Shown one piece after another: positions 33,101-59,806 of a stretch of DNA of 64,000 nucleotides. Each line of letters opens with the position of its first letter. Position 1 is the first letter of the stretch. The notes under the pieces were generated by a model. The model saw only the letters and a program-made list of their open reading frames with translations, was not told the DNA's origin and did no database searches. The position numbers were made by a program, and so were the translations under genes. Source of the stretch: Callorhinchus milii (Eukaryota); assembly GCF_018977255.1 (NCBI RefSeq), contig NW_024704742.1, forward strand, positions 65,722,001 through 65,786,000, written 5' to 3'.

Positions 33101-33155
33101 ATGAGAGATCGCAGACAGATCCCGAGCTGTGTCCTGGTCGCTGTCTCCTTTGCAG
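33101..33155 (+). CDS. Cys-rich type I membrane protein, exon 1 (signal peptide start)
   Basis: gcaacATG, MRDRRQIPSCVLVAVSFA(G), donor CAG/gtgag; phase 1 joins 45312 to give signal peptide ...SFAGLVVG-Q. Confidence 0.75.
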
Positions 33156-33232
33156 GTGAGAGGGCAACTTGGAAAGTTTTGCTTTTTCCTTTGGGTTTGC
33201 AGTTGCTGCTTTTGCTGTGCACATGTGCCCAC

Positions 33233-33478
33233 TGCCTGCCAGCCCTGCCAGCCCTGCCAGCCTTGCCAGCCAACCTTGCCAGCCTGCCAGCCCTGCCAGC
33301 CAACCTGCCAGCCCTGCCAGCCAACCTGCCAGCCCTGCCAGCCCTGCCAGCCAACCTGCCAGCCCTGCCAGCCCTGCCAGCCAACCTTGCCAGCCCTGCT
33401 AGCCAACCTGCCAGCCCTGCCAGCCAACCTGCCAGCCTTGCCAGCCAACCTGCCAGCCCTGCCAGCCCTGCCAGCCTG
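33233..33478 (+). repeat. 9/12-bp minisatellite (ctgccagcc / ctgccagccaac) in intron 1
   Basis: Direct tandem units; unit lengths are multiples of 3, which explains the overlapping ORFs in several frames. Confidence 0.95.
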
Positions 33479-35589
33479 GCATCAGGTGCCCTGACCACAC
33501 CTGACAGCACTGAAGCCAAAGTCAGTCTTTGAAATGTAATCGACATGTGTTTATCTCAGAGGGAAAGAGGACCTTGTACTGGTGTTTAGGGCAATGCTAC
33601 TTTCTTTTTCTCTCTCTCTCTCTCTCTCTCCCTTTCTCTCTGTTTTCAAGATGTTTTCTACGCTCAGTGTACGAAAAGTAATTTGGTCACTCAATCCACC
33701 GGTGTTTGTGGGACGCCGCTGTGCGCAATTGGCCTATTGTGTTTCGTCCACGAAATGCGCAGTCACAACGCTTTACGGTGCATTCCGTGAAGCGCTTTGA
33801 GACGTCTCAAATACGTGACAAGGCGCCGTATCAAATAAAAAGATTCTTAGTATTCGTGTTTTGGAGAACCCTCTTGGCGGGTAATAAACGTGCTGATTTT
33901 ACAGGCGAAATAATAAAATAATAATCCTTCCGTTTTCGTACAGTGCCTTATCACGTTGTTGAGACGTCTCAAAGCGCTTCACAAGATTTAATGTAAAGTG
34001 GATTGACTGTGAATATTGTGGGCGAAATGTGGCGCCAATTGTTTAATTAAATGACTGTCATCCAGGGATAGATGGTCAGTGAACAGAACAGAGAGAGAGA
34101 GAGATTTCTTCTGCTGATTTCTTCTGCACAAACTATATTGTAAAGTGGAGACTGTGTATTTTTGTCAGTGAAACACAGCATCTAATTGTGCATAGTAGTG
34201 CCCCGACCGGGACTTAACAACTGGCTTCCTACTTACTGCTAAGTACACAGAGGTTCAAGGTGCAAGGGGGCAAGTTGATGTTGGTAAGAGTCAAAGTCAA
34301 GGTATCTTGGGGGAATATCCACTGTGTGGTTTATCTTCTTGGAATTGTTTATCTTTTAAGAATCTTTAAGAGAGAAGTAGATAATTCTTTGGGGAGGACA
34401 AGTTTGCAGGGCTATGGGGAGAGAGCGGGGAAGTGGGATTGATTTGGATACCTCTGTTCAAAGAGCCGGCACGGACACGATGGGCCGAATGGCCTCCTTC
34501 TCTGCTGTATAATTCTATGATTTTAGCTTAATTGGTGCACTGCAATAATGTCCCTTGTCTTGGCTCCTCATCCAGGTTCTCAATAATTATAATAGTTAAC
34601 ATTTTCTTCTAACTAAAAACTGTCCTCTATGGTCTTAAATGTAACTGCATCAGATGATATTATAAATACACAGGCATAAATTTCTGAAATGCACAATGGA
34701 AATTAATAAAAGTAAGTAATAAAATGAATTGCTAAAAATAATTAAGAATAAAGTAATAATTGATCCTTGCATTTTATATCCACGCAGCTGTGGGTTTCGC
34801 CTACAGTCAATGCACTTTACAACTGCTTTGAGAAGTCTCAACAAGATTATATGCCACAATATCAAATACAAGGATTCTTCTTATCATTATATTACCTGAA
34901 AACCTGTGAACTAGATATTGTAGTTTGGGTTCTGCATTACTGACCTGCTGACTCCATATCGACCTCTCTGCTCAGCAGGCTTCGGACTGCTCCATGTCCC
35001 ATGATCTTGGTTGTTTGTGGGACTTGGCCACGTGCAAAGTAGCTATCACATTTGCCTACACAAAAAAAAGTCACTACACTTAACGACCATACCGACTTAT
35101 CCGTCCTGCTCAGTGGACTCTGGCCCGCTCCACATCCCCCATCCCACAGTATCTTTGTCTTGCTCCCTCCCTTATCTCCTTCAAGTCTCAAGACCCTCCT
35201 CTTTGACCATGCCTTCGGCCACCCTCCAACACCTACCCTTCCTGCTCCCCAACCCTCCTGATGCCAACCCCCAGCTCGGATCCAAATCCCTGACTGTCCA
35301 GCGCCTTGGGACTCCCTCCCGATGTGAAAGGCGCTATACACATGTAATTTGTTGTTGTTGTTGACAGAGAGCCATAAAAGACTGAGTGAATTCCTTCTCT
35401 GCTCGGGGAGTGGTGAATGAGGAATGTTGTTTACAAACCGGGTTTCTCAGATTCCTACCATAAAGGTGGAGGTATTCTAGTTAACTGCAGTGCTGCTTCT
35501 GAAAAGTCAGTTGGATTGAGAGATATACATTCCCACTGTAAGGGTGGCATTGTTACAGAATTCAGATATAGCTTTAACAAAATATTAAG

Positions 35590-35970
35590 AGTTGTGGGTT
35601 CAAGCCACTCATTGGGACTGCAGGCTGACACTCCAGTGCAGTGCTGGATTTTTCTCTTTCTCTTTGACCGAGCCTTCAGCTCCCCTCTCGACTCTCTTCC
35701 CCTCCTCGCTCCCTCCCTTCCCTCCCCTCACCCTGACCATTTCCCCCCTGCTCGGGTCCTGACCCAACTGTGCAGCGCCTTGGGACGTCCTCCTGACGTG
35801 AAAGGCGCTTTATAAATGGAATCTTGTTGTTGTTGTTGTGGATGTTATCTGCATTGTTCGAGGTGCCGCCCTTCAAATGAAGCAGTAACACCGAGTTCCT
35901 GTCTGCCTGTTCAGATGGGCATTAAAGATCCCATGGCATTACATCCACGGGAGTTTCTCTCAGTGTCCTG
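35590..35970 (+). mobile_element. Deu-domain SINE (SacSINE1/AmnSINE1-like) interrupted by an L2 tail at about 35650-35838
   Basis: gggttcaagcc...actccagtgcagtgctg and gaggtgccg...accgag...ctgcctgttcag motifs; related copies near 40110-40440 and 53500-53760. Confidence 0.65.
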
Positions 35971-37648
35971 ATCAGCAGTACCCCACTGCCCCCCCACCAC
36001 TCTCCCAACCCTTCGTCATCAAGATAAAATTGCTCATTCACTTCATGGCTGTTTGTGGGACATTGCGGTATACAAATTGGCTGCTGTGGTTGTCGACAAA
36101 TCCACAATCGCTGTACAGTAAATCCTGTGAAGTACTTGAGACATCCTCCCACCGTGAAAGGTGCTATAGTATACAAAATGATACTTGCGTTTGGTATAGT
36201 GCCTTTCACCTTGAGAGGCTTATTCCTTCAAATCCCTACCTCTGCCCTGGATAAATTGCTGTCACTTAGTTCCTTTCCTTTTTGATTTTTTATTGGAACA
36301 TCCAATACGCTTGAAATCTTCAGGAATATCTGATACTGAGGATGGGACATCCTCTTTCCTGACCTCCTCCTTCCCCATTGCGATGTGTTCCTGCAAAAGC
36401 AAGTCGCTGTTATCATAGAATCTTGCAGCACAGAAGGAGGCCATTCAGCCCATCGTGCCTATGCCCACCCTTTGAAAGAGCTATCCAACTATTCCCACTC
36501 CTCTGCTCTTATGCCATAAATCCCCCTGTTGACAGTAAAATCCCGCTCTGAGAAAGTTCCTCCAAGTGATTGACAGTAACAGAATTGATGGTAACAAAAT
36601 TAACTAATTAAAGTGCAGATGTTCTATTCCAAACTGAAACAGTCCTTTCATCGACTAAAATGGTGTGTCTCGTTCTCAATGGGCTGTTGATTTTCGAATG
36701 AGATCGTGTTCCAATACGTCCACATGTGAATAATGCTCCTAGTCACCTATTTCTAATAAAAACATTTTTCTCTTGCTCTGGGTAACTTGGAATAGTCTCC
36801 TGACTATTTGTGATGTGAAACTTGGGATGAAAAGGCTTTGTATCAAGAAGGCACTTGATTCCTATAGCTGTCCTGATTCCATATGTATGTAGCTATCCTC
36901 CGGGTAAACAGATTACAAAATCAGATTTCCGTATATGAAAGCAGTTCCTTGCATGTTTTGAGATTGGATTACGATCATGTTGAGCACCCTGTTGGGTTGG
37001 GTAGTGATGTTGTCTGCAGAGCTCAGTCCAAGTGTAGTGTTGACCTGATGATCATTATGGTTTCTCTGCATCAGTGTCCACTGGTGATCTTCTGACGTGT
37101 CTTGCCAACCTTTGGAACACTAGCTCTTTACATTGATTGTCATCTTGGAAATCTTCAACTGCTTTGATTGAGTCCGACACAAGCAACTTCTACAGCACCT
37201 CATTACTCACCAGCACTTCATTCACTTCATGGCTGTTTGAGGGACGCTGTTGTGTGTGAATTGGCTGCCGTGTCTACATTCATTGCCTTCTCCAGATCTT
37301 GCTCACTAATCGTCATCTTTTTTCCCTTAAATGATCAAATACATTTTTCTGAGTTGCTTGTGTTTTTTCCTGTGATTCTCTCTTCGGGCTTGAGTCTATA
37401 TCTAATTTCGCAGTATATAAAATATACATTGGAAACATCTAATTCTTTTTTACATTGGTTCCTAGAAACTACCCCCATCCCTGAGTGGATCAAATTCAAG
37501 ATCTTGAATTTGATCCTTGTCCTCTTTGAAATGCCCCCACACCCTCGCCCACTGTCCAATCTGCTTCCTCTGTTCAGCTGATACTGGTCTGCTTCACTAT
37601 CGCTTCTGTCCCTGTCTGCAAAACTTGTATGAGAAACAATATTTTCTA

Positions 37649-37978
37649 CAGGGTGTACATAAAGTCCTCTTATCCCCCCGTTACAAAGAGTGATATGAGA
37701 ATACGGAGGAGCTGAAACAAGCTGTCAGAGATGCATTTCGTCTCCTCACACCATGTTACAGAAGATGTCACACTGAAATCGGCAACAGATCATTATCTGC
37801 CATGAAAATGTGGCGGTCACTCACTCATTCTCTGGACATCTAAATACAGTTAAACACTTGTGCTGAATACAATAAAATGCTTCTAAATACAATTATCATC
37901 ATTCTTCCACATGCTCCAGTTGTTGGTCAGTGACTGTAGAAAAAAATGTGGGGCGAACAGGAATTTGTGGACACCCTG
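37649..37978 (-). mobile_element. Complete non-autonomous Tc1/mariner-type MITE
   Basis: TA|CAGGGTG...CACCCTG|TA with imperfect TIRs of about 28 bp. Confidence 0.8.
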
Positions 37979-38679
37979 TACATTTCCTCCATCCCTCAAG
38001 CTCCTCTCCCAGCTCAGTCACTTTGAGATCTCCTGATGCGAAAGGGCTATTTAAATGTAAATCCTTGTTTAACTTTCATTGTAGTTTCATAACAGCCAGG
38101 TGAAGTCTATAATCTCACACATAGCAATATGCTGCTATTTTCCTTAACATTAAGCACTCAGAGATCTTATCTTATGTGAAGGGCGTTAAATAAACACATT
38201 TTGTGTTCATAACTATTTTGGATAATAGTTGAGGTTGTACATAGCTATGATTCAAACTGCCTGACTAGTGATCGTTATTTATCTTGTCTGCATCTGCTTC
38301 CAGTCATTCACCATTGACTAAAAACCACCAATGTTGATTGCCACAACTTCTCTATTTACCTTGGCAGTTTGATGACATTGGACTTAAACAGGTGGTGAAC
38401 TTCCTCTTGTTGCTATATATCAGGTTTTTTGCTGCCGAGGACTTACACTGGGACTTTTCCAGTAAACAGCTCATTGTCAGAGTTTGGGTGTTGGCATTTA
38501 ATGGTAAGAGGACTATATTTTGCTCAAACTTCTCTACAACGCATACGTGAGGAAGGGGGGAGAGAAAGAACATGAAAGAAACTGGGTGCAGATAAAAAAT
38601 AGCTGGTTATTTTATTCTGTATTAAATTGAACAAGCTTTCAGGTTATTGGGCAATTGAGCTAAAATAAAATGCAGATGA

Positions 38680-39606
38680 GAATTTGATACAGTGCCTTAT
38701 CATGCCTTTGAGACGTCTCAAAGCATTTCACAGAACACACTGTAAAGTGAATTGACTGTTTATTTTTTGGGCAAAAGGTGGTTGCCAATTGTGCACAGCA
38801 GTGTCCCACAAACAGTCGGGAATTGAAGTTACCGATTTTTTTTTCTAAGGAGTTATTACCCCTGGAAAAGCGATCCGCCAAACAACTAACAAGCGGGTTC
38901 CTACTTACTGCTAGGAGGAATGTGGAGTAAGGAAACTTACCCAACATTTTGCCCTGCTGGGAATCAAACCCAGGTCTCTCGCTTGTGAGGTTAGTGCTCC
39001 AACTGCTGAGCTACAGGACTATAATAATAATAATCCTTGCATTTGAAATAGCATCTTTCACATCTCAATGAGCTTCATCAGATTTACTGCAAAGTACAGC
39101 AGCCAGTTTGTGCACAGTGTAAGATGATCTGCACCTTGTCTTCTGTGTCTTTAAGTTTGCAATTAACTTGATTTGTTAGACGAGGCGATGTGGTTGCCGA
39201 TTCACTGAGATCCAATATGGCATTGTGACAGGCAGCTGAGTAAAGGGCCCACCATAAAAATAATAGTAATCCTTGCATTCGTTGAGACGTCTCGAAGCGC
39301 TTCACAGAATATATTTTAAAGTGAATTGACTGTATATTTTGTGGATGAAACGTGGCAGCTGATTGCGCACAGCAGTGTCCTACAAACAGTTGTGAATTAA
39401 GTGACCAAATTATTATTTTTGTGGGGGAGGGATTATTACCCTCGGAAAGTGATCTACCGACTAACACGCATGTTCCTACTTACTGCTGGATAAACAAAGG
39501 CGTTTGGAGTAAGGAAACTTGCCTAACGTTTCACACCACCCGGGATTTGAACTTGGGTCTTCTCATTTGTGAGGCGAGTGCTCTAACCACTATGCTATGG
39601 GACTCC
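38680..39606 (-). mobile_element. Two near full-length tRNA-SINEs (about 38680-39020 and 39263-39606)
   Basis: Reverse complements of the 14194 element. Confidence 0.8.
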
Positions 39607-42118: not shown

Positions 42119-45100
42119 TGACCGTGTAAGTGAACACAGCAGCCAGTGTGTACACAGCAATGACCCAGGAATTGCCATGAAGTGAATGACTATTATTTTA
42201 ATTCTGGGGGATTTTTGACTAAAACACTGGGAGGAACTCCCTTTCTATTTCGGAATAGTGCCATGGAACATGTTTCAGACACCTGGTTGACCAAAAAGCA
42301 ATCTTAACATACACTCGAAAAAGGCAGAAGAGTCCTGGTGTATTGTATCACCAAACGTTGGCTCCTCCAACAATGCAGTGTCCCCCAGTACTTTATCGGA
42401 GCATCAGCCTAGATTATGAGCTGAATGTTGGGGTTGAATCTATCTCACTTAGAAGTGAGAGTCCAACTGACTGAGCCAGACTTTTTGTCTGAATTAGTTG
42501 GTAGCCCTCTTGGGTTTGGTAATTTTCTCCTCTTCTTTTATCTTCTGAACTCAATATGTTCTCCTTTCCCGCTGAGGGTATTTCCAGTTGCATTGAATGT
42601 GAGTGCCCTCTGGTATCTCCCGAATGCGCTAGTGCGCTATTTGTTTTTGTGATGGGTTAGCCACCCAGCAAGCTCCAAAAAATACCCAAGCTGTTACATG
42701 ATGAAATTTACCACAATCTTTGACTACTTTTAGATGCAAGAAACTCCTGTTTTGGTTTGGGATTTTGAGGATGATGAAAGCACCTTTTCTTCCTGAAGCT
42801 GTTTGGCTCAAGACCAGTGTGTGATTGGGTTGTTGGGGGTGGGGAGAGATGGAGCTGGGTTCCCTTTTTTTGACGTGTCTCTTTTTTTGATGATCTGACC
42901 TTCCTGTTTAACATGCTTACAGTCGCCTCCGCTTTCTCCCCGGCTCAGCATCAAACTCCACCATTGTTCAGCACCCTGAGATATTTGTTACCCTGGATTT
43001 AAGAGCACTGGATAAATGCAGAGAGTTGTTGATCTGCCCAATGGGCTATTGGCTGCTATTTGGTTAGTTTTGCGAGAAGTACAGTTGTGTGCAATCCCTT
43101 AAAATAGACTTGTTTGACATAGAAAGGGGAACTGAGACTAAATGTCAGCTTGTCTGTGATTCCCAAATGACTAATGTGTAGCCAGTTCGCTGTTTCACCT
43201 TTCCGATCTGCTCACACGTCACTCCACTTTCTGATCCCTTCGCTCCATTGGCTCCAGCTTTCTACAAGACCTTCAGTCTCTCGCTACACCATCAGCTGTC
43301 TGCCCTTCAGTCACCAGCCCCCCAAAACTTTGGAATTCTCTGCCTCAATGCCTCTGCTTTTCCCCCTTTGGCTGTCTTCAGATCGCACCTGAAGACCTTC
43401 CTCTTCGACCTTGCCTTACTGTTAAGTGTATTGACTTTTTTTTCAATAGGCAAATGTGATAGCCACTTTACACATGGTCAGGTCCCACAAACAACCACGA
43501 TCCATTCTCCCGCACTCTTGTTGCCCAGGACAATGTACGATTGTCCAGTTTTATTGCTTAATTTGCTTGAAGCTTCCTGCATCCACTTACAGTAATTGAC
43601 AACAGCTTCTCTCTTGTACCTCAACCACACACAAACATCTCCCTTGCATACCAGACTGACCTTTACACTTCCTGAAGGACTAGCCTCATGTTCCCTCAGT
43701 GAGACTCACAATTTGGGCATCTGTTGTTACTGCGTTAATAATAGACGAGCGCTTCGAGACGCTGCCCCTGTGAAGGGCGCAATATAAATACAAGTTGTTG
43801 TTGTAGACATCAAAATTGTCATGCCTGGTTTATCACCCACCAGAACTTCCCTGTTGGTTTCACTTTCTTTTTGTTGACTGCTGCACATTTTGATTCACAG
43901 AGTTTAATGACAATAATAATAATAAGTTGCATTTATAGAGTGCCTTTCACATTTAAAAAACATATATGTTTTGCTGAGCAATGAAAAGGAATGGCTAATG
44001 TTGCCAGCAGCGTTCCTTGAATGAGAGATAAATGTTGGGACAGAGTGCTTGCTGTTTGTCATCAGCTGATGAGACTCATGATTCTCACTTGCAGTGGCTC
44101 CACAACTGGCTGGAAGTGAGATTTCCTCCACCTCTGGAGTCATCTCTCTCAGTAGTAGCTGCTTTGCAGCTGTGACTAAAATTCAGAGCAGTGAGCGTAG
44201 ATAATTTCTGTGGGTTTACTTGAATTTAATCTCAGAAAACATTTGCATCTGACTACAACAGAGAAATTTGCAGTTTCAGCATTCGCCCACAAAATACACA
44301 GTTAATCCATTGTACGCTACATCCTGTGAAGTGCTGTGAGATGTCTCAATGTCGTGATAAGGTGCTATATCCAAGGCAAGGATTATTATTATTGTTATCA
44401 TGATTATTATGTCTTGCACAAGATTGTGAGATATGGGAGGGCACCTCTGTGCTCTTCAGCTGTGGGCGGGCGTGGGCGTGGTGGATGGGGCGTGGTGGGT
44501 GGGTATGATGGGTGGGTGTGTGCTGGTGCGGGCAGGCGCGTGCGGGGGCGCGAGTGAGTGTGGGTGGGAATGGGGGTGAGCGAGCATGGGCAACTGCTGG
44601 GGTTCTTAGATGAGGAGAACTAGAAGTGTCGACCAAACCTTTTGGGACGTTGGGTGGGAAGCTAGATACACCAATACATCAATGTTTTACTTCTGCCCAA
44701 AATGATTATTAATCTCAAAACAATAAGAAACAATCCAAAACGAATTCCGCTTGATTTACCATAGTTTATATTTTGGTCTGTCTGGAGCCTTGGGGCATCC
44801 TCCCGATGTGAAAAACACTTTACAAATGAAATGTTGTTGTTGTTCCCACTTTTTCGGAAGTTTCACTCATTATGCAATTAAATCCTGTATAAGATTTTTT
44901 TTTTTGATGCCTTTACTTGGTTACGTTCATTCTGTGTTATGCATTCAATACAAGAATGTTTTCATTTTGTAACTGTAATGTGTTGTGTTACTAAATGCCT
45001 GGGTATTGTGCACACGTGGGCATCAGTATTGTGAATTAAGAACATAAGAATTTACTAGGCGAAACAAGACCAAGGTCCGTCTAGTTTGCCTTCCCCATCC

Positions 45101-45311
45101 TGCCAGTCGCTTGACGTGTCGTGTCTCAAACTATACATTGTAGCCTGAGATATTATTTTCAAGCAGAAATCTAATTTGTTCTTGAAAGAATCGACTTTCT
45201 GCTTCCACTGGCCCCCCAATGGAGGCTGTTCCGTATGTTTGCTACTCGGTCACTGAAGTAATGTTTCCTCAATTCTGTTCAAGACGCTCCTATCTTGTTT
45301 TTTTTTCTTAG

Positions 45312-45533
45312 GCTTGGTGGTGGGTCAGATGACTACAAAGATGGTTTCCCCCACAGTTTCGCTTCCTTCTGCACCAGTGACCTCTTCGTTTGATGATCTT
45401 ACCAATCAGACTTTGCAGGGCAACAGCACAACAGCTATCATTCTGGTGGCCATCACTTCCTCGTTCCCAAACTGTACGGGAGTGAATACCTCCAGCTGTG
45501 CTGTGTGCCCCGCTGGGCATTATCCCGACAATG
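45312..45533 (+). CDS. Cys-rich membrane protein, exon 2 (Ser/Thr stalk and first Cys repeat)
   Basis: Polypyrimidine-ag acceptor; LVVGQMTTK...NCTGVNTSSCAVCPAGHYPDN; gtaagt donor; phase 1-1. Confidence 0.88.
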
Positions 45534-45855
45534 GTAAGTTACTGTGCAGAGTTGGGTAAATTTTCCATTAGGAGAAGCTATAACTGGTATTTATATAGCG
45601 ACCCTCACACAGGGTAGCGTCCCATAGCATTTGGCAGTGGCGGAGCACTACTCCAAGCCGGGGAGAGGTAACAGTTGAAGAGGAAGGTCTTCAGTCGCAA
45701 CCTGAAGATGAGGAAGGAGGGATAGAGGTTGAGTGTTCCAGATTTTCGGGGCATTATGGCTGAAAGTGCAGCCACCAATGGTGGAACGGAGGGCATGACA
45801 AAGTATAAGTCAAGTAACTTTGCAGATGCTCTAAGATTTTCTCTGTCTCTTTCAG

Positions 45856-45991
45856 CTTCCCTGAACTGCTCCTGTTGTCCTGATGGTTTCTGCGTCTCAT
45901 TGGACAAGTGCCTGAGCTGCCCACAGGGTTACTACCAGTCCCAGTCTGGGCAGAAGGCCTGCTTGCCCTGTTCAAAAGGGGCTTATTCCAA
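45856..45991 (+). CDS. Cys-rich membrane protein, exon 3
   Basis: SLNCSCCPDGFCVSLDKCLSCPQGYYQSQSGQKACLPCSKGAYS; phase 1-2. Confidence 0.92.
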
Positions 45992-46499
45992 GTAAGTACA
46001 GTAGCGAAGTGCTGAATATTATGGTTCCAGATCCTCTGGCTGGGAATGAATTGGTCATTCTGCCAGCAGTAAAAACAATAATGATCCTTGCATTTGATAT
46101 AGAGTCTTGTCATGTGGTTGAGGATCTCAAAGCGCTTCACGGGATACACTGTAAAGTTAGGTATAAACACAGAAGATGCTGCGAACACGCAGCAGGTCAG
46201 ACAGCATCCATGGAGAGAGGAAAATCAGTTAACGTTTCAGGTCTATGACCTTTCGTCAGAACTGGGGGAAGGGAGCAGATTATTTTATTTCTTGAGTGAT
46301 AATAATCTCTCAATAAATTTTTAAAAAAAGTAATAGTTTGGTCACTCAAACCACGAGTGTTTATGGAACGCTGCTGTCACAATTGGCTGCCGCGTTTCAC
46401 CCACAAAATATACAGTCAATTCACTTTACAGTATATTCTGTGAAACGCTTTGAGACGTCTAGAAGATGTGAAAAGTGCTGTATTAAATGCAAGGATTAT

Positions 46500-46900
46500 G
46501 AGAATACATCAGAATATACAGCACAGAAACAGGCCATTCAGCCCAACTGGTCTATGCCGGTGTTTATGCTCCACATGAGCCTCCTCCTGCCCTTCCTCAA
46601 CTAAACCTTCATGCATAACCATCTATTCCTTTCTCCCTCATGTACCTATCTAGCTTCCCCTTAAATACATATGTGCTATTTGCCTCAACAACTCCTTGTG
46701 GGAGCATGTTCCACATTCCACTACTCTCTGTGTGAAGAAATTTCTTCTAACTTCCCCTATTTGATCTATCTATGACTATTTTATATTGATGGCCCCTGGT
46801 TTTGGTCTCCCCCACAAGTGGGAACATTTGCCCTATTTCTACCCTATCAAAACCTTTCATCATTTTAAGGACCTCTATCAGGTCACCTCTTACCCTCCTT
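46500..46900 (-). mobile_element. CR1 LINE 3' fragment (related copy at about 54290-54590)
   Basis: agaatatacagcacagaaacaggccattc reverse tail with body shared between the two copies. Confidence 0.75.
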
Positions 46901-49900
46901 ATATATTATATAAGGACAAACAGAGAAAGGAGCGGGGAAAGAAAAAGGAAACATTTAAGTGAAGATGATGAGATTAGAAACGTTGATGGTGCAAAACAAA
47001 AGGCAGTCGTTCTATAATACCCCTAGTGTTCTGGGACTCTGCCCTGTATGAGGGGCGCTAAATAAATGCAAGTAATTGCTTTTGTTGTAATCCCTCCTCC
47101 CCCCCAAAAAAAATTTGATCACTCACTCCACGACTATTTATGGTTGTGTTTGTGCGACACTATTGTGTCCCATATATCAACCTGTCCGCTCCCTCTGCTC
47201 AGCAGGCTGTAGCCTGCTCCACGTCCCCCGCCCTGCCTGCCCCACCATCATCCTCTCTGAACCTACCATTTGAAACTCCATCCCACATTCCCTTCACCTC
47301 GCTCCTTCCCTTGGCTCCTTCAAGGCACGTCTCAAAGCCTTCCTCTTTGATCACGCCTACGGCCACCCTTCCTACCTTCCCTGATTCCAACCCTCCAGCT
47401 CGGGTCCAAATCCCTGACTATCCAGCGCCTTGTGAAGTCCTCCTGATGTGAAAGGCGCTTTACAAATGTAATTTTGTACTGTAATGTACGCAATTGACTG
47501 CCGTGTTTTGCCCACAAAATACGCAGCCCACTTTACAGTATATTCTGTGAAGCACTTTGAGATGTCTCGAAGACATGATAAAGCGCTATATCAAATTCAA
47601 GGATTTATTATTATTTTTACATATATTCTGTGAAGTACTTTGAGACATCTCAATAACGTGATAAAGCATTATATCAAATGCAAGGATTATTATTATTTTA
47701 AACCTCCAGTTTCTGTCCCGATGACTGAGTGTTTGATAAGTGGTGTTATTAAATCCTTCGGTCCCAGTTTAATCTCTGTACAGTTTTAAAGAGATTTGAG
47801 CTTTTCACAATTTCAGGCCTCTTCCATCATCTGTTGATATGAATTATACGAATGTCGTGCTAAACCATTTAATGCTGGTTTGTTCATAAGTGTGTGACTG
47901 GAGCTGGATCCAAGTGACCATTCATTGTCCAGAATGCTGACTATTTGCCGGGTAACCAGCCCAGACTGTTCTCCGCTGTCAACTTGTGTTCATTTTAGTC
48001 TCTGTTCTTCAATCAGCATTGCAAGGGTTGACAAATGGGTCATTAGCTGCTTGAAATATGGCCATAATGCTGATTTTTGGTGCCAAGTTTAGGTTTTGCA
48101 CCAATAACAACAAATTCTACTTAATTAATTTGCGCCTTTCACGTCAGGAGGCCATCCCAAGGCGCTGGACAAAAAGGAGGGGGTTGTACCTGAGCTGGAT
48201 TTAGGATCAGAGAGAGGTGGAGGGCAAGGTAGGGGGTGGAAGACGGAAGATGACCGAAGGCACGGTTGGCTTTGAAGGAGGCAAGGGAGGGGGCTTCTTC
48301 CAAATGCCCAAGAGTGTGCGCTTTTTAAAAAAAAACTAAGAATTTATGAACGTGTAAATAAATCCCCTTCCCCCAGGACTGAATTTCGAAGATCCTCACC
48401 CTCACATTCAGATCCCTCCACAGCCTCGCCCCAAACCCTACCTCTGTGACCTCCAGCACTCAGTGAGCACCGGCCTGCTTCATGTCCCCTGCCTGACTTG
48501 CTTGCACTATTGCTGGACAAGCTTTCAGCCATCAGCCCTTGCTCTCTGGAAATCCATATCTTTCAACTCGGAACTCCCTCCCAATTTTAAAGCCTGCCTT
48601 AAAATTTGTCTCTGACCGTTCTTTTGGTCATTTTTCTTTTTCCTTCCTTTCCCCCCTCCCCCCACACGCCCGCTCGGGTGCCCAGCAAGCTGTGTAAAGC
48701 GGTTTGAGACTTCCTCCTGACTTGAAAGAGGCTGTGTAAATGTAGGCAGTATTGTGTATGAATTATTTTTTGTTTTGTGCCTTCTTGCTTTATTGTTGTG
48801 TGTGTGCATGTGGTACTTTGGCTCATGTAGCTTCAGATAACCTCTTGTGATCAGGCAGAAGGAAGATTTTTCCTGTGTGTGTGTTTCGTGTGGTTCTTTG
48901 AAGTTTTCAAACTCTACTTTTTTTTTGTGATTCAAACCGAATTTTCTGTAGTTTGAGTTTTGTGTTCTGGAATGCTGTACACTGTCCAGCTCCTTGGGAT
49001 GTCCTCCTGACGTGAAAGGCGCTATACAAATGTAATCTTGTTGTTGGTGGTGGTGGTGTTTGGGTTACAGCACAGGAGCTGACCAGCAACACTCTATTCA
49101 GTACTGTGTAGAACATTTGAGACCCATACTCCATGCTCAACCAGCTGGGCTACCCGGCATGTCAAGTAGTACTGTGGTCAGTGACTGTGTGACGTGGGTT
49201 CAATTCAGAGCAAACTGTTGTGCTCCTCTATCTTATCAACTATGCCTATGGTTTTCCTACCCCCCCACACACACAGGCTTGGTGACCAATCCCACCACTG
49301 TGCAGTGCTCCAAAGCTATCCTGCACAAAGAGCACTATATAAATGGAAGTTGGAACATAAGAATTGTGAGATGAAGGTCCATTCAGTTCACCTTCCACCA
49401 ACCTGGCAGTTGCATACACATGTCATGTGCCAAACTCTATACTATATCCCACAATAGTAAGAACAAATACGTTGTTGTTGTTTTATATCCGATTATTCGA
49501 TTCCAGAGTATGTTGACTTAAAATAATCATAGCAGCAGCTCCAAAGTGTTTGTATGTTCCAAGTGTCCATGGGGAATGGTGGGGGGAATCTCACAGTACT
49601 GCTCTACATCTTTGTTAGTCAATGGGTTAAAGAATAACATTTGGAACAGTTGTAAACCCTGGTGGCTGAGATCCATCCCACTCAGCTACTGTTAACCCTG
49701 CAAGCCAAAGCCCTAATGGGTAGGATGGTCCAAGCTGGACAAGCAGAGGGAAAGCAAGACAGCAATATTTATGTGGTTTTAGCTGGTTAGATTCTAGCAA
49801 TGCCACAACACACACTCTGGGGTCCCCAAGTCTTGGCTCTTGCCAACCTGTGCCTAATACTTTCTGGAACCGGAATTAGAGAAGTGGAGAAGCAGGATGT

Positions 49901-50504
49901 GTGTTTCCACCTCATCAGAGTTCACACTGCATTCTAAAACACTAATTTTCATGTCTAGGTGTCACGATGGAACTGTTTGGTTTGGATACTCTTGAGCATA
50001 GTCATGGGTTTCCACATGTGTCTGACACTCCGCTGATCAAAACCAAATCTAGTTGTAAAAAGTGAGGAATGTAGTGATGTAGCTAATATCCCCTCAGGCT
50101 GCCGAAGCCCTCATACATGCCTTCATTACATCCAGGCTCGGCTATGCCAACTCCCTGCTTGCTGGCTTTCCCAACTCTTCCCTCCACAAGCTGCAGATCA
50201 TCCAGAACTCTGCAGCTCGTGTCCTGTCCTGCACCAAGCTCTGTGACAGAGGATCGAGTTCAAAATCCTCGTCCTCACCTTTAAGGCCCTCCATGGCCTT
50301 GCCCCCTCCCTACCTCTCTGACATGCTAACCCTATATCAACCTGTCCTCTCCCTCTGCTCAGCAGGTGCTGGCCCACCCCCCCACCATCAGTGGTCAGGC
50401 CTTCATGACTGTTCAGCACCGCGGGACGTCTTTCTGATGTGAAAGGCACTACACAAATGTAATTTTGTATTGTACTATATATTTTCTCACTTCTCTCTCC
50501 ATAG

Positions 50505-50593
50505 CTCTACGGGAAGCACTGAATGCCAGCCCTGTCAAGCTGGGTTTTACGCCAACGAAACTGGTTCAAAACTCTGCCAAGACTGCTCTTCAG
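50505..50593 (+). CDS. Cys-rich membrane protein, exon 4
   Basis: (N)STGSTECQPCQAGFYANETGSKLCQDCSS; phase 2-1. Confidence 0.92.
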
Positions 50594-50616
50594 GTAATGG
50601 TGTGCGTCATTGTGTA

Positions 50617-50968
50617 AGGGTGTTCACAAATTCCTGTTACCCCCATGTTTTTTTTTACATAGTAAACTGACCAACAACTGGAACATGTGGAAGAATGATA
50701 ATTGTGTTTAGAAAGTACTTCATTGTATTCAGTACAAGTGTTTAACTATATCTAGACGTGCAGAGGATGGGTGTGTGTGAGCGTCATCATTTTCATGGCA
50801 GATAATGAACTGTCACCATGTTTGGTGTGACATCTTCCATGACATGGATGGAGCGAGGAAGAAGTTACTGGTGTCAGACATTGTTACACTCGACTCATCT
50901 GCAACAGAAAATAAAAATTCATTGTAAGAAAAAAAAACAGGGGCTAACAAAACTTTGTGAACACCCCG
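50617..50968 (+). mobile_element. Tc1/mariner-type MITE 23 nt downstream of the exon 4 donor
   Basis: agggtgttcacaaa...tttgtgaacacccc TIRs; body homologous to 37649-37978. Confidence 0.75.
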
Positions 50969-51411
50969 TGGAGTGTAGGAAATAAATGCTCAAATTATTT
51001 TGTGGGGAGGAGAGGGGAATAATTCAGCTACTACACCCCTAACCTCTGGTATCCCTCTGTCTTGCTCCGTCTTTCGGTCTTCAAATCCCACCTAAAAAAA
51101 ATACTCTCTGCCTTCGACCTCGCTTACAGTCACTTCCCCCCTTCCCCACATGGTGACAGGCCCTTGTCACTGTGAAGCGCTCCGAGATGTGAAGAGACTT
51201 ACATGAATACAAACTGTTATGATTGCTGAATATTTTCCTCTTTGTTCTTTGCTTTTGCCCTGCCTACCCCCCCAACCCATGGAACAAATGGAACAAGACT
51301 TTGTTTTGTTGGGGGGGGGGCTGCTTATTTTTCCACCAATGGGTGCTATTGTCACTTGACACCAAGGAACTATCCCGAAATCCCACTAAAAATCTGTTCT
51401 ACATTTCCCAG

Positions 51412-51472
51412 GCTACTTTTCCGAGAAGAATGCCACTTCCTGTGAAGCCTGTTCCCAGGGATTCTTTTGCAA
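51412..51472 (+). CDS. Cys-rich membrane protein, exon 5
   Basis: (G)YFSEKNATSCEACSQGFFC; cccag acceptor, gtaagt donor; phase 1-2. Confidence 0.9.
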
Positions 51473-51664
51473 GTAAGTCAGGGAAGCTTGTTGAGCTGTC
51501 GGAAGTATTAACAAACCCGTCTGTCATTGAACTCACCTGGATTGACATGTAACACCTCACTCTGTGTTGCGGCCTCAGTTTATCATTGCATTAGCTCACT
51601 CCGCAGGTTTTGATGGGTTTCCGATCTCTTTTTATTTTGATCATTTGTGTTCTGGATGTTGATA

Positions 51665-52335
51665 CTGTCCTGTAGCCTAGTTGTTGCGTGCTCACCTCAT
51701 AAGCAAGAGGATCCGGTTTAGAATCCGGGCAGTAAGTTTCCTTACTCCACATTGCCTCTGTTTATCTAATAGTCAGTAAGAACCTGGTTGTTAGTCGATT
51801 GGTGGATCGTTTTCTGGAGGTAATAATCCTTCCAAAAAAATAGGTTTTGCTGTTTGTGGGACACTGCTGTGCGCAATTGGCTGCCGCGTTTCACCCACAA
51901 AATATACAGTCAATTCACTTTAATAATAATATAATAATAATAATCCTTGCATTTTGATATAGCGCTTTTCACGTCGGGAGGACGTCCCAAAGCGCTTCAC
52001 AGAACACACTGTAAAGTGAATTGACTGTATATTTGTGGGCGAACGCGGCAGCCAATTGCGCACAGCAATGTCCCACAAACAGTCGTAGATTGAAAATGAC
52101 CAATTTTATTATTGTTTTGTTTTGGAGGGACTATTATTAGGTGTGTGGAGTAAGGAAACTTGCCAAAGGTTTCGCCCTCTGCCTGGAATTGAACTCAGGT
52201 CTCTCGCTTGCAAAGCGAGTGCTCTAACCACTGAGCTACAGGACTCCACTTTACAGCATATTCTGTGAAGCACTTTGAGACGTCTCAAAGACATGATAAG
52301 GCGCTATTTCAAATGCAAGGATTATTATTATTATT
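51665..52335. mobile_element. tRNA-SINE (+) with a nested antisense tRNA-SINE (about 51923-52246)
   Basis: Outer SINE split at cacttta, which is duplicated at 51916 and 52247 (TSD). Confidence 0.85.
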
Positions 52336-53300
52336 ACATACCACTTCACAGGTACCCAATGAGGAAGAATATTGAGGGGATTGTATGAGGAGGAAAAGTG
52401 GGAACGTGAGTACAGTGATGCTCTCTGAGCACTGGCTGGTTTGCTGCTCAAAGAAGGTGTCTGACGTCTAAATTGTCGGGCTGTTGCTGACATCATTTCC
52501 TCCGTTTGCTGTGACATTTGCGGCAGCCCTAATGCTCATAGCTGGTTATGCTTTTATGAGCATTGCTGGCTGGGTTGGCTCGATCCCTGTGTGCTCATCG
52601 GTTCCTTCATTCCAGAGAAACAATATCTGACTTCAGAGTCATTGCTAACTCATCGCCACTGTCACTACCTGTTTACTGTGTATGTGTAAAGTAGGAGGTG
52701 ACACTGGCAGCGATCTAATGACCTGGAAGTCGGACATTTTAGTTGTGAAAGGTGTCTGGTGTAGAGGAAACGAGTGAGCTGAGCACGTGTCCGTGTATAT
52801 TTTATATTTATATATTATATGCACAGCCCATTACAGCCTCAATTTACTTATTACAAGGTTCACTGTGAACTCACTCACTGTGTGTCCGCTTCCCTCTGCT
52901 GGACGGCTGGGTTAGTTTGTTGTCACTTCCTGTTTTGTTGTGTGCGTGCAATCAGGAAGTGACATCGACGACCACCGAATTACCCAGAAGTTGGCCATTT
53001 TAGCTTTTCCCAGACAAAACGGAGGCCGACTGGGTTGTCAGGTTGCTGTCAGCATCGCTTCCTGCTTTGGGGAGGCACAGCAGCAAATGTGGGAATGATG
53101 TTGGCCACTGTTTCTTAAAGCATCAACCAGCCAGGGCACAGAGAGCAGTCAGCCGGCTGAGCACATTGCAATCGCTTTCCTAGCTTTTCCTCTACGTTTA
53201 ATCCCTTAATTTTTTTCCTTCACAGGTACCTGTGCAGGCAGAGTGCCCTGGTTTCTCTAGCTGCGTTTATATAAACCTTGTGTCTTTTTTTTTCTTGAAG

Positions 53301-53389
53301 CACAACTCATTGCACCCACTGCACCATGTGCCCTGCCGGACAGGAGGCTTTGTCTTCAGCCACAGAAAAATGTTCCTTTTGTCGCCCAG
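53301..53389 (+). CDS. Cys-rich membrane protein, exon 6
   Basis: (N)TTHCTHCTMCPAGQEALSSATEKCSFCRP; phase 2-1. Confidence 0.9.
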
Positions 53390-53989
53390 GTAACTGTGTC
53401 CAGTGATCAGCCCCTGCCCCCACCTCACCCCTTCAGTATCTAAATCATTAAACTGGGAGAAAAGAGATTGGGGTGGGGGTGTTGAAGAGTAAAATTCCTC
53501 AGTGGTAGCACTCTCACCTCTTGAGTCAGAAGGTTTGTGGGTTCAAGCCCCACGTTGGGACTTAGAATCACATAGTCTAAGCTAAGACTCCAATGCAGTG
53601 CTGGGGAGATGTTACATTGTGGGAGATGCCGTCCTTCGGATGAGACATCAAAACCGAGGTCCCATCTGCCTGTTCAGGTGGATGTTAAAGATCCCATGGC
53701 ATGATTCGAAAAGAGAAGGGAGTTTCTCCCGGTGTCCTGGCCAAAAATCCCTCCAATAAAATTGGTCACTCAGTTTATGGCTGTTTGTGGGACATTATTG
53801 TGTGCAATTGGCTGCTTCATTTCGCCTACAACATACAGTCAATTCATTTTACAATATATTCTGTGAAGCAATTTGAAACGTCTCGACAAGGTGATAAGGC
53901 GTATATCAAATGCAGGGATTATTATTATTTGAAACTTGCAGTGATATCAGAACAAGAAGAACGAATGGTGGAATGTTTTTATTTGGCAG

Positions 53990-54102
53990 GAATGCACAAG
54001 GTAGAAAATGAGCTCCGGTGCAGGATGTGCAGGACTGGATTTTACCAGACTCTGCAGGGGCAGCAGGAATGCAACATCTGTCCTGAGAATTATTATTGCC
54101 CT
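53990..54102 (+). CDS. Cys-rich membrane protein, exon 7
   Basis: (G)MHKVENELRCRMCRTGFYQTLQGQQECNICPENYYCP; gtgagt donor; phase 1-0. Confidence 0.92.
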
Positions 54103-55169
54103 GTGAGTAACTGCGAGTAACTTGTTAGTAACTTGCTAGTAACTGTTGGTAACGGGGTCTTTCACGCAGGCCTTTGTTGGTGTGATTGTGTGAATGGAAT
54201 ACAATTTAACATCTGAAATATTGAACCTGGTTTGTTGTAAAATGTGTGTGTATGTGAGACATTTGATTATATGATGGAAGATCTTTTAGAATACATTAGA
54301 ATATACAGCACAGAAACAGGCCATTCGGCCCTACTGGTCTATGCTGGTGTTTGTGCTCCACATGAGCCTCCTCCTGCCCTTCCTCAATTAAACCTTCAAG
54401 CATAACCTTCTATTCCTTTCTCCCTCATGTACCTATCTACCTTTCCCTTAAATACATCTATGCTATTTGCCTCAACAACTCCTTGTGGTAGGAGTAACTG
54501 CGAGTTCAGGTGTTCCACATTCCCTCAACTCTATGTGTGAAGAAATTTCTTCTAGCTTCCCCTATTTGATCTAATTGTGACTATTTTATATTGAGATTTA
54601 TATATTTTATATTTTAATCCATTTCATTTTTTCTGTTCCTTCTCTGGTGTTTGTGTGACTCTCTTTTTCTCTTTCTCTCACACACACATAAACACAAATG
54701 TCTATTTATTCTGCCTTTCCTCTGTGAGACAAAATGTGTCCTGGTATTTGCCCTAATTTGCTCTTCACAGACTTGACCCCAGGCTCTCTTGTTCTGCGGT
54801 CTTGGCGTATCTGAAAACGCTACTTTGTGGAATACTCTCTAAATCCCATTTATCATGTGTTCTAAACCTCTAAGCCCATCCCTCTGAGACTTTCCTTTTT
54901 GATGCTGAAGAGTTATGGCTTATCTTGTTCCTCACAGCTCACCTCCCAGCACTGAGTATCATGTTTGTTGCCCTTCACTGCGGCCATGTTATGTTGCAGT
55001 GACCACACCTACATGTAGTTCTCTGGGTGTGGTGTTCTGCTTGCACAAGATCCCAAAACAGAGCCATGGTTTAGTATGTCAGACAATCACTTGTTCAGAT
55101 AGAAACTTTGAGTGCTATTCCCCCCACCACCCCACCCCCACTTCTCTATGCTGTGTATACCCTGCTTCT

Positions 55170-55738
55170 CAACAACAACAATTTGCATTTATATAGCACC
55201 CTCTCCGCTGGGTGGTGTCTCGGAGCGCTTAACAATCGCGGAGCCCGAGGCCCAGCCAGGGGAGGGGGGAGGTGACTGTAAGTGTGGTTGAAGAGGAAGG
55301 TCTTCGGGCGCGACCTGAAGATGGGGAAACAGAGGGCGAGGTGAAGGGGTTGAGGGAGGGAGTTTCAAAGTTTCAGGGCTAGTGGCTGAAGGCACGGCCG
55401 CCGATGGTGGAGTGGAGGATTCGGGGGACGCGGAGGAGGCCAGACCCAGAGGAGCGGAGGCAGTGGGTACTGCTGTGGGGAGAGAGGAGGTTAGAGAGAT
55501 AGGGGGCTGCCAAGGAATGGAGGGATTTAAACACTAGAGTGAGGATCTTGAAATCGATCCGCTCTGTGACAGGGAGTCAGTGGAGTTTGGCAAGGCCTGG
55601 GGTAATCGGGGCATGAAGTCTGGTGTGGGTGAGAATGCGAGCGGCAGAGTTTTAAATGAGCTGAATTTTGTGAATAGTGGAGAAGGAGAGACCAACAAGG
55701 AGGGCTTTAGAGTAGTTCAGCTGAGAGATGACAAAGGC
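55170..55738 (-). mobile_element. L2 LINE 3' fragment
   Basis: Reverse complement of L2 ORF2 end and caacaacaa tail. Confidence 0.8.
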
Positions 55739-56707
55739 ATTTGCTTTTGTACTTTCCTTTTGAACCTCAGCATTATAACTTAGTTTAAATCCCACTAAAG
55801 TTGTCACACGTTTGCAATGTCGTAGTGTGAAGTAGGGTTAAGCTGTGCACAGGCTGAAAATATTCATTCTATCAGCCTGCTGCCTTCTCAGTGCAAAGTC
55901 CTGCTCGATGTGTGGAGGGTCATTTACACTAAATCTGAGGGAGTTGTTTTCTCCTGAATCCGAGCAAATGTTGGCAGAAACTATCAGCAGTTGATGTGAC
56001 TAACTTCAGCCCAGTCCGAAGTCACTTTTCTTTACACTTCAAAATAATTTTAGAAAGTTTGGAGGTGGTTTGCTGGGGGGTGGTAGGCGCAGTTTTGTTT
56101 TTTGCTATTCACATAGTGGGCACTAGCCTGCTTCATATCCCCTGCCCTACACCCCATCATTGGCATTCGGGCAGTTAGCCTGTCTGTCAACGCTCTCTGG
56201 AACTCCCATGTCGCTCCAGGTCACTCGCTGGCTCACTCATCTTTTTCAAGGTCCGTCTTCAAGACTCACCTCTTTCACAGCGCTTTGTCACTCCCCCGCC
56301 CCCCCCTCCACTCAAAGTCCCTGCTCCCATCCCCAGGTCAGGCACTAAGCCAGGATTGTTCAATGTCTGTGGAAGTTCATGTTGGCGAATGCTCCCTCTG
56401 TTGAAGTGACCTTCTTGTGATCACTTTGAGTGTAAAGCGATTGCTAGTTCTAACTCCTCGTGGTTTCTCAAGCCTGTCCCATTTGACTTCGGTCACCCTC
56501 CTACCCCCACCCACCCTGCCCTTCACCCCTCCTGATCCCAACCCCCTGCTCTGCTGCAAATGCTCGACTGTCCAGCAACTTGGGACGTCCTCCTAATGTG
56601 AAAAGTGCTGTACAAATGTAAATTGTTGTCGTGGTTTCTGTTAAGGAAGAGCCTCAGAATTGTTTTCTTTAATATGGAAGATTTACTGACTTCTGTCTCC
56701 CCTACAG

Positions 56708-56864
56708 AGTCCAGACATCAATCCTCTCCAGTGTCCGGGTGATGCGTTTTGCCCAGCGGGAAGCACTGCCCCTCAGTTCTGTATGGAGACGTTCTTACGT
56801 AAATCGGGAAGTCAGTGCGTGCTCGCTCCACTCACCATCTTCCTGCTCGTGGTGGCAGCAACCT
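56708..56864 (+). CDS. Cys-rich membrane protein, exon 8 (juxtamembrane and first half of TM)
   Basis: SPDINPLQCPGDAFCPAGSTAPQFCMETFLRKSGSQCVLAPLTIFLLVVAAT; phase 0-1. Confidence 0.9.
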
Positions 56865-58249
56865 GTGAGTAGATGGAATCTTTCTTACTGTTTCCCAGCA
56901 GTTGGGGGCGTGTGGAGAAAGATAACCTTAATGTGGGTTCACCAATGTGGTCTAGACTGACACTCCAATGCAGTGCCTTGGAAGGGAGCACCACATTATC
57001 CGAGGTGCTGTCCTTGGGTGAAAGATTAAACTGAGGTGGACCTTAAAGATAATAATAATAATCCTCACATTTGATATAGCGTCTTATCATGTCACTGAGA
57101 TGTCTCAAAGCGCTTCGCAGAATATATTGTAAAGTGAATTAACTGAATTTTGTGGATGACACATAGTAGCCAACTGCACACAGCAGTGTCCCACAAGCAC
57201 GTCGTGGATTGAGTGACCACATTTTTTGAGGGTAAGAGATTATTATACCAGGAAAGCGATCCACCAATCGACTAACAACCAGGTTCCTACTTACTGCAAG
57301 GTAAACAGAGGCATGTGGAGTAAGGATACCTGCCTAAGGTTTCTCCCCACTCGGAAATTGAACCCTGGTCCTCTCGCTTGTGAGGCGATCCATGGCACGA
57401 CTCAAAGAAAGAGAAGAGAGTGTCCTGGCGAGCAATCCACTTCATTGCTGTATGTCAGACATTTCTGTGTGCAAATGGGCTGCCGCAATTATCTTCAAAA
57501 TGCAAAGTTTTCACCAAATCACTGGATAGGAAACAAAATGGGAATCCGGATGCTTCTTCTTGTTCTTTATTACCTTTCCACTTCTATAGAGTGAATCAGA
57601 AGTCCTCGATTCACTCTAATATATCAGAACTGCTTGAACAGCTAACGTGAGAGACCAGGCCTGAAATCCCTTTGTGATTGTGACCTTGACAGCGTTGTTC
57701 AAACTGATGGTGTGAGATTGTGCAGAATTTAGGAAAATTCTTTGATTTAGTTTGGAAGCCGGTTCAGGACAAACCGCGTCCAAATTGAAACTGAATAAGG
57801 TATTCCCAAATTCCGCAAACGTTACATAGTCACAACATTTTACAGTAAATCCTATGAAAAGATGGCATCCAGACATGAAAGGTCCTACATGAAATGCAAG
57901 GATTGTTATCTGATCTCCGCTCGACTGGCTTCGGCCTCCTGCTTATCCCTTGGGCCCTCTGTCCCAGAATCGGTGGGCACCCTTTCAGCCACTATGTCCC
58001 GAAACTCTGGAACACACTCCATCAATCTCTCCACCTTGCCCCCTTGTTCCTCATTTTCAGGTCGCGTCTGAAGACCTTCCTCTTTGACAGTGCTTACAGT
58101 AATCTCCCCTATCCCCCTGGCTCAGCATCATGCACCGCCACTGTTGAATGCTCTGGGAGGCTACCTTGCCTAAGGAGTGCTACGTAAATGTAAGTTGTTG
58201 TTGTTGCGTGTCCTTTTCCATTCTATTTGATTTATTTTGTTTTCTCCAG

Positions 58250-58413
58250 TTATCTTGCTGATAATAATACTGATTGTTCGCCGGAAGAAGGATGCACGTC
58301 CAATGGACCCAGCGAGGACTCCGCTGCTGAACAAAGAGGAGACTCCGAGCAGAGGGTTTCAGCCCATCTACGGAATAGCCTGGGACAGAGAGCCAGTGTA
58401 CGCAGGCTGGTAA
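58250..58413 (+). CDS. Cys-rich membrane protein, exon 9 (rest of TM and cytoplasmic tail)
   Basis: (F)ILLIIILIVRRKKDARPMDPARTPLLNKEETPSRGFQPIYGIAWDREPVYAGW-TAA; completes the TM and positive-inside RRKK. Confidence 0.88.
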
Positions 58414-58874: not shown

Positions 58875-58960
58875 TGCCCGCCCGCCTGCCCGCCCGCCTG
58901 CCTGCCCGCCTGGCTGGCTGCCCGCCTGCCTGCCCGCCTGGCTGGCTGCCTGGCTGGCTG
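58875..58960 (+). repeat. (GCCY)/(GGCT) tetranucleotide microsatellite in the putative 3' UTR
   Basis: Direct tandem 4-mers. Confidence 0.9.
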
Positions 58961-59800: not shown

Positions 59801-59806
59801 AATAAA
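59801..59806 (+). terminator. Candidate polyA signal of the Cys-rich receptor gene
   Basis: AATAAA followed by T/GT-rich sequence; further candidates near 60595-60611. Confidence 0.4.

Follow-up and report, generated by a model that had tools for sequence, protein, structure and literature searches.

Cysteine repeats of the Ephrin_rec_like type (PF07699) are known from ELAPOR1/2, SCUBE1-3, SVEP1 and the Eph receptors, all of which carry additional family-specific domains, while TNF receptors such as 4-1BB, OX40 and CD40 pair a type I topology with a cysteine-rich rod and a short tail. A Glu-Pro-Ile/Val-Tyr-Ala core is common to the EPIYA proteins, among them Pragmin, CagA, BepE and LspA. The gene described here lies at positions 33101 to 58413 of a 64,000-nucleotide stretch of Callorhinchus milii DNA (NCBI RefSeq assembly GCF_018977255.1, contig NW_024704742.1, positions 65,722,001 to 65,786,000 of the forward strand; hereafter the window). 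Judged by sequence comparison, it is the cartilaginous-fish orthologue of zebrafish si:dkey-21a6.5 (ZDB-GENE-131121-257, ENSDARG00000091813), and it does not differ in kind from the other members of that orthogroup. In this family the Ephrin_rec_like repeats make up the whole ectodomain, and an EPIYA-like motif forms the free C-terminal end of a transmembrane protein encoded by the host, whereas Pragmin is a cytoplasmic pseudokinase. The gene is already known to databases as a placeholder and its component parts are of known kinds; what the literature searched does not describe is their combination, a myeloid receptor, apparently non-mammalian, that joins a repeats-only ectodomain to an invariant EPIYA-like end.

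The gene is real and spliced. As the preliminary description had proposed, nine coding exons (55+222+136+89+61+89+113+157+164 = 1086 nt) join into a single open frame of 361 amino acids, and on sequence inspection all eight introns are bounded by GT..AG. The parts of the transcript are as follows.

33101..33155, forward strand: exon 1, coding part, which holds the start codon and all but the end of the signal peptide (phase 1 GT donor; N-terminus weakly similar to those of sharks)
45312..45533, forward strand: exon 2, with the end of the signal peptide, the Ser/Thr-rich stalk and the first cysteine unit (X1 and X3 contigs)
45856..45991, forward strand: exon 3, with three cysteine units, Ephrin_rec_like at 31.4 bits (splice signals, contigs, Pfam)
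50505..50593, forward strand: exon 4, with two cysteine units, Ephrin_rec_like at 26.8 bits (splice signals, contigs, Pfam)
51412..51472, forward strand: exon 5, with one cysteine unit (contig joint 50590>51409; 13-15 of 19 residues identical to sharks)
53301..53389, forward strand: exon 6, with two cysteine units (X1 length sum; 15-17 of 29 residues identical to sharks)
53990..54102, forward strand: exon 7, with the last two cysteine units, Ephrin_rec_like at 28.6 bits (X4 contig, Pfam)
56708..56864, forward strand: exon 8, with the membrane-proximal cap and the first half of the transmembrane helix (contigs, homology, conservation)
58250..58413, forward strand: exon 9, coding part, with the second half of the helix, a basic stop-transfer patch, the cytoplasmic tail and the stop codon
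58414..59936, forward strand: 3' untranslated region, extent as covered by contigs

Contigs from runs X1, X3, X4 and X9 were compared over positions 44000-60500, a span that begins downstream of exon 1. X1, X3 and X4 (three runs from two studies) are presumably RNA, a guess backed by their spliced contigs. Four introns of the predicted chain were seen directly: intron 2 as a GT..AG joint in X1 and X3 contigs, introns 3 and 4 likewise in X1, X3 and X4 contigs, and intron 7 as two pieces adjoining within a single X4 contig. In an X1 contig of 1663 nt, the gap from exon 3 to exon 9 is exactly 509 nt, equal to the summed length of exons 4-8; introns 5, 6 and 8 have this length match as their sole support. 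The X9 contigs contain none of the splice joints and run continuously across exon borders, in the manner of DNA. Intron 1 is placed by its splice signals, by 141 nt upstream of exon 2 in an X1 contig and by weak homology (5-6 of 18 residues of exon 1 identical to shark signal peptides). A chance exon chain or an artefact is ruled out by the spliced contigs together with the orthologues. The gene had been called invisible to the open reading frame track; so it is, and since the exons are short this reflects their length only. AATAAA signals lie 3' of the stop codon at 59801, 60595 and 60606. Spliced X1 or X3 contigs show C-to-T differences at 45489, 50556 and 58371 (exons 2, 4 and 9), which are probably alleles.

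Homology searches recovered a coherent family behind incoherent names. Exon 8 as a query retrieved bowfin and frog proteins at 71-75% identity, and searches with the C-terminal region returned 89 matches for a bowfin query and 73 for a turtle query. Five database entries among these family matches bear the name si:dkey-21a6.5, so the gene cannot be called unnamed, as it first was; the remaining entries have arbitrary automatic names (laminin, SCUBE, SVEP1, MEGF, PCSK, KRTAP, FLO11 and TNFRSF). The orthogroup carries nothing beyond these labels, and the earlier view that it has no characterised orthologue held up in the searches. The window protein is 58-61% identical to its shark and ray counterparts and 43-55% to those of bony vertebrates over most of the chain, and its similarity to shark orthologues runs from end to end: all nine exons align, and with them the cap, the helix and the tail. 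A tree built from 31 chosen rows places it as the sister of sharks and rays within a cartilaginous-fish clade at 100/100; the clades of cartilaginous fish, of ray-finned fish, of frogs and of turtle plus birds are starred, and the deep order is not resolved.

The tie to the zebrafish gene, whose protein was not itself retrieved, comes from names and neighbours. In a fused turbot model the family gene lies between a CFAP99-named part and MRPL35, and an excerpt of a salmon gene list has MRPL35 beside si:dkey-21a6.5 (PMC6786245); this shared adjacency connects the family with the zebrafish gene name. Upstream of the gene in the window, and in the same orientation, is NELFA, which two bird models (P0267 and P0272) fuse to the family gene, while teleost models P0313 and P0051 fuse the family gene with neighbours (the CFAP99-named part, MRPL35). 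Public models of this sort reveal the synteny and have caused mis-naming. A true fusion with NELFA, CFAP99 or MRPL35 was rejected: the fusions occur in isolated gene models and are read as annotation run-through into adjacent genes. In a literature search mostly outside subscription papers, si:dkey-21a6.5 was named in main text only within the salmon gene list; no functional paper on it was found, and ENSDARG00000091813 was found in none. Papers on EPVYA included none titled on the family, nothing was found on its synteny, and listings on TNFRSF evolution, mammalian loss, Csk motifs and GCC2/GCC3 contained nothing on it.

The encoded protein consists of a hydrophobic N-terminus, a stalk (residues 24-80, 37% Ser/Thr), the cysteine repeats, a single transmembrane segment (hydropathy peak of 3.5 spanning the exon 8/9 joint) and a cytoplasmic tail of about 43 amino acids. 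It contains 33 cysteines, ten CxxCxxG units spaced by about 17 residues, an eleventh unit that ends in N, and ten N-glycosylation sequons, in agreement with the layout first drawn from the sequence (about ten units and ten sequons, a Ser/Thr stalk, a transmembrane segment split over exons 8 and 9, a short tail). The repeat type had also been named correctly: Ephrin_rec_like passed its curated cut-off of 23.1 bits in three of the seven exons scanned (3, 4 and 7) and in all four full-length orthologues (61-75 bits). CUB, EGF, sushi, vWA, mannose-6-phosphate-receptor and kinase domains were absent at E 0.01 from those four orthologues, which bears out the description of a repeats-only type I receptor, and the chain length leaves no space for domains specific to SCUBE, SVEP1, ELAPOR or Eph proteins. 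Its own signal peptide, helix, stop codon and tail rule out a fragment of SCUBE, SVEP1 or ELAPOR.

Conservation is unevenly distributed along the ectodomain. At non-cysteine positions the stalk averages 0.29 and the repeats 0.50-0.59, and the membrane-proximal cap, the best-conserved part, reaches a mean of 0.78. Turtle and birds (P0058, P0073, P0077 and P0083) have a far longer Ser/Thr/Pro stalk, repetitive in part, and frogs a very short one. A lungfish model (P0161) has 16 cysteine units rather than the usual ten or so; its N-terminal part is GIY-YIG-like and resembles a retroelement attached by annotation.

AlphaFold2 was run on the shark orthologue P0064 with an alignment of 42 rows and gave a mean predicted local distance difference test (pLDDT) score of 77, with 174 residues at 90 or above and low confidence in the stalk (pLDDT < 50) and tail. 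The repeats were modelled as a chain of short strands and were followed by a single helix (302-329). The best structural match was Chlamydomonas Mst1 (Z 10.2, root-mean-square deviation (rmsd) 5.3 over 217 residues, Foldseek E 4.9e-12) and the best vertebrate match ELAPOR1 (Z 8.6, rmsd 1.6, 81 residues), with the cysteine domains of class C G-protein-coupled receptors, EphB2 and 4-1BB next (Z 5-6). The ectodomain is thus predicted to be a cysteine-repeat rod like those of Mst1 and ELAPOR1. A homodimer prediction for residues 76-332 of the shark orthologue, at a score of 0.04, was uninformative. Mst1, the longest match to the rod, is itself a 1987-residue structural filament subunit, and the shared repeat implies no orthology. 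Since this top match is a structural mastigoneme protein, stalk and rod might serve as a glycocalyx strut or a homophilic contact, with the C-terminal peptide anchored to a cortical scaffold independently of phosphorylation. The wide variation in stalk length and the 16 lungfish units would be expected of a spacer; we nevertheless regard such a role as unlikely, given that residues resembling those of kinase substrates are conserved before the terminal tyrosine and that, to our knowledge, a C-terminal Trp fits no common PDZ class.

Several automatic names in the family (TNFRSF4-like, TNFRSF9-like) suggest instead a divergent TNF receptor binding a TNF-family ligand of non-mammalian vertebrates. 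A 4-1BB profile match at E 4e-7 agrees with these names, as does the TNFR_c6 domain, which passes its cut-off in one of the four full-length orthologues. The same domain is below cut-off in all seven window exons scanned and absent from the other three orthologues, however, and 4-1BB fits the predicted fold poorly (Z 5.2, rmsd 9.2). TNF receptors further differ in their cysteine period, and the window family lacks their intracellular signatures: three TRAF-binding patterns occur in 11, 0 and 0 of 116 tails, and the 43-residue tail is too short for a death domain, whose absence had been noted at the outset. We therefore consider TNF-receptor membership very improbable, and rank both it and the spacer role below a signaling or an endocytic function.

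The cytoplasmic tail and the membrane-proximal cap are the most informative parts of the protein; the architecture given in the preliminary description held, but both of these were missed. Three tail features recur across the family.

58324..58329, forward strand: dileucine L333-L334, kept in 114 of 116 tails
58369..58374, forward strand: second tyrosine motif, Y348-G349, kept in 109 of 116 tails, with its Tyr ten residues upstream of the terminal one
58390..58410, forward strand: C-terminal EPVYAGW, residues 355-361, an end motif conserved across the family

The 116 tails were chosen for an intact end and include 14 near-duplicate frog sequences. The end was also scored in 90 unselected matches. 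Among the latter, EPVYAGW ends 73 and one-letter variants end 7, so that [ED]P[VI]Y[AT]GW closes 80 of 90 (115 of 124 in a second set) and EPVYAGW or EPIYAGW closes 76; ten end otherwise, and those inspected are other splice forms or partial models. The end is near-invariant from shark to bird, the residue before the last tyrosine being Val or Ile, while the rest of the tail drifts. Wherever the upstream Y-G is present, its tyrosine is ten residues from the last (109 of 109). The EPIYA-type core E[PNS][IV]Y[AEG] occurs in 112 of 116 tails; NPxY occurs in none.

In published excerpts, the best library substrate of c-Abl is DEPIYAVPP and that of Fer is DEPIYEWWW, the latter also a tight c-Src binder, with Trp preferred by Fer at +2 to +4 (PMC10065799). 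EPVYA is counted as an EPIYA-related motif, and Csk binds Pragmin, CagA and BepE through their phosphorylated EPIYA motifs (PMC3593179, excerpt). On sequence, the tail end matches both the Abl/Fer substrate consensus and the bacterial motifs, signals with which some bacteria subvert the kinases of their hosts. The likeness to EPIYA proteins is one of motif sequence, from which phosphorylation and Csk binding are predicted here. Purified Src phosphorylated an EPVYA-bearing LspA1 fragment (PMC4030455, excerpt), and no Csk SH2 consensus was found in the available part of PMC10016382.

Supplement rows of four zebrafish papers describe expression of si:dkey-21a6.5 rather than of the window's own gene. 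Among the rows listed for a whole-body atlas (PMC8517238), it occurs in three of 63 cluster lists: macrophage (log fold change (logFC) 1.70, p 2e-5), granulocyte (1.60, p 0.046) and retinal cell (p near 1); in the blood rows it marks grn2-high macrophages (72.5% vs 9.4%). Brain macrophages are similarly marked in the rows of PMC12698085 (21.5% vs 3.1%), where dendritic-like cells lie 6-7 log2 below microglia, though the gene is listed as down in just one of the two datasets compared. Means in the rows of PMC10948150 are 0.54-0.72 for macrophage/myeloid subsets and 0.09-0.72 for neutrophil subsets, and the gene was not found among the listed B-cell table rows. In the supplement excerpts of PMC6499218, it is among 330 genes up in infected macrophages. 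Across the four datasets, transcripts of the zebrafish orthologue were found in macrophages, microglia and neutrophils.

We tentatively favor a phagocyte receptor that has no enzyme of its own and signals through tail phosphotyrosine, perhaps via Csk. Such a protein would be a type I single-pass surface glycoprotein, in which the conserved cap carries a glycosylated rod built of 17-residue cysteine units and, beyond it, a mucin-like stalk. A putative ligand would cluster it, whereupon a Src family, Abl or Fes/Fer kinase may phosphorylate the terminal EPVY tyrosine, and probably also the tyrosine of the YG motif, ten positions earlier. SH2 proteins could then dock at the phosphotyrosines, with Csk as the first candidate; Csk docking would dampen Src-driven activation and uptake, and the dileucine would take the receptor off the surface. 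The near-invariant tail, its Abl/Fer-like and EPIYA-like core, the fixed spacing of the two tyrosines and myeloid expression support this proposal. Gene, splicing, orthology, conservation pattern, predicted fold and the myeloid enrichment in zebrafish were observed or computed; ligand, phosphorylation, partners and location are all inferred.

Several points weigh against phosphotyrosine signaling in phagocytes. Canonical immunoreceptor tyrosine-based activation motifs (ITAMs) and their inhibitory counterparts (ITIMs) occur in 0 and 1 of 116 tails, the ten-residue tyrosine spacing being all that the tail shares with an ITAM. The tail stops three residues past the last tyrosine, and the invariant A-G-W at the free C-terminus could equally serve a phosphorylation-independent partner. 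According to the excerpts of PMC4030455, the LspA1 EPVYA fragment escaped phosphorylation in cells and failed to block phagocytosis. The gene ranks low in the whole-body atlas (rows 453 and 392 of 1000; PMC8517238), and in the larval leukocyte paper it was found only in the infection-induced list, one of eight files, and not in the other seven (PMC6499218, excerpts). Three of the four expression papers cover immune cells only, so other sites of expression may exist.

Alternatively, and with lower probability, the protein may be an endocytic or endolysosomal membrane glycoprotein of phagocytes, whose dileucine and last four residues bind adaptor protein (AP) complexes while the receptor cycles between the surface and endosomes or lysosomes with cargo on its cysteine rod. 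The extreme C-terminus is where LAMP1, CD63 and CD68 carry a Tyr-x-x-hydrophobic signal. Proteins of the LAMP/CD68 type have the LAMP luminal fold and a GYxx-hydrophobic end near the membrane; the window family differs in fold and has Val or Ile, not Gly, before the tyrosine. Trp is not a usual hydrophobic residue in such signals, and the tyrosine is about 40 residues from the membrane rather than 6-9. Retention of the dileucine in nearly all tails argues for sorting, yet 115 of 116 lack the acidic residue of [DE]xxxL[LI], that form occurring in one. Heavy N-glycosylation (the ten sequons, against a family median of 7), the mucin stalk and a closest vertebrate fold from the endolysosomal ELAPOR1 are consistent with this role, whereas an invariant E-P-V before the tyrosine and a fixed second tyrosine would be unneeded for it. 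In the rows of PMC8517238, the zebrafish gene is listed with lysosomal genes in the grn2-high macrophage cluster. This endocytic or lysosomal role is the main rival to phosphotyrosine signaling, and the two could coexist.

Members of the family fall into 101 distinct clusters from sharks, ray, sturgeons, gar, bowfin, teleosts, coelacanth, lungfish, frogs, turtle and birds. Mammals contribute none of the 101: no mammal is among the 90 clusters whose source name can be read, and of the remaining 11, ten lie closest to teleosts and one to a frog. The preliminary description had suggested loss in mammals, and we judge that loss likely on this sequence record; it goes no further than likely because the searches, which were word-seeded and length-limited, also missed the zebrafish and chicken proteins. 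By the same searches, squamates, crocodilians and jawless fish are likewise without a cluster. When a profile was run against 1.84 billion representatives, the family accounted for 6 of the best 150 matches, lungfish and a sparrow being additions; giant repeat proteins swamped the matches, so this search was uninformative on mammals and invertebrates. A mostly molluscan ESM Atlas cluster (449 aa, 68 members) scored 0.90-0.91 whether the query was the C-terminal part or the mature protein in full, and may be an invertebrate branch, which would make the family older.

Human NELFA and CFAP99, which we take to lie on 4p16.3 with NELFA abutting NSD2, and INO80B and MRPL35, presumably on 2p11-13, would place the gene at the mammalian break of an old block. 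A bolder and doubtful extension of the Csk proposal is a native vertebrate receptor of EPIYA type: a macrophage surface protein that recruits Csk to the membrane through its C-terminal EPVYA phosphotyrosine as a brake on Src-driven phagocytosis, the host equivalent of the bacterial EPIYA effectors. Lineages from sharks to birds would have retained it, and mammals would have lost it, perhaps when a rearrangement separated the genes around it.

These data define a conserved orphan receptor family whose members databases scatter under a dozen wrong names, and give it a testable mechanism and a cell type in a tractable animal. Since zebrafish and chicken are standard macrophage models, a phagocyte receptor apparently missing in mammals matters for reading them. 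In the excerpts of a 2014 paper, Pragmin is the only characterised mammalian EPIYA protein (PMC4030455); should the tail bind Csk, the family would stand beside it as a host EPIYA protein that spans the membrane. Csk binding would also bear on the scarcity of EPxYA-type motifs in mammalian proteomes, in which EPxYAxV is reported as under-represented (PMC3593179, excerpt).

Elsewhere in the window, positions 1-12421 and 18110-30573 are two tandem copies about 98% identical, each with the 3' exons of NELFA on the forward strand and the last INO80B exon (PAPA-1, zf-HIT) on the reverse strand; the second copy ends before an acidic exon present at 12987-13313. Two haplotypes duplicated in the assembly would explain them, as would a partial duplication of recent date. 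A C/T-rich tandem array with a 33-46-bp unit occupies 14910-15708, a 9/21-bp array lies just inside intron 1 (33235-33476), and a CTGC array falls within the 3' untranslated region (58874-58961). In the introns between 38600 and 62100, short interspersed repeats are numerous on either strand; they measure 170-370 bp, are 75-93% alike and lie at very high contig depth.

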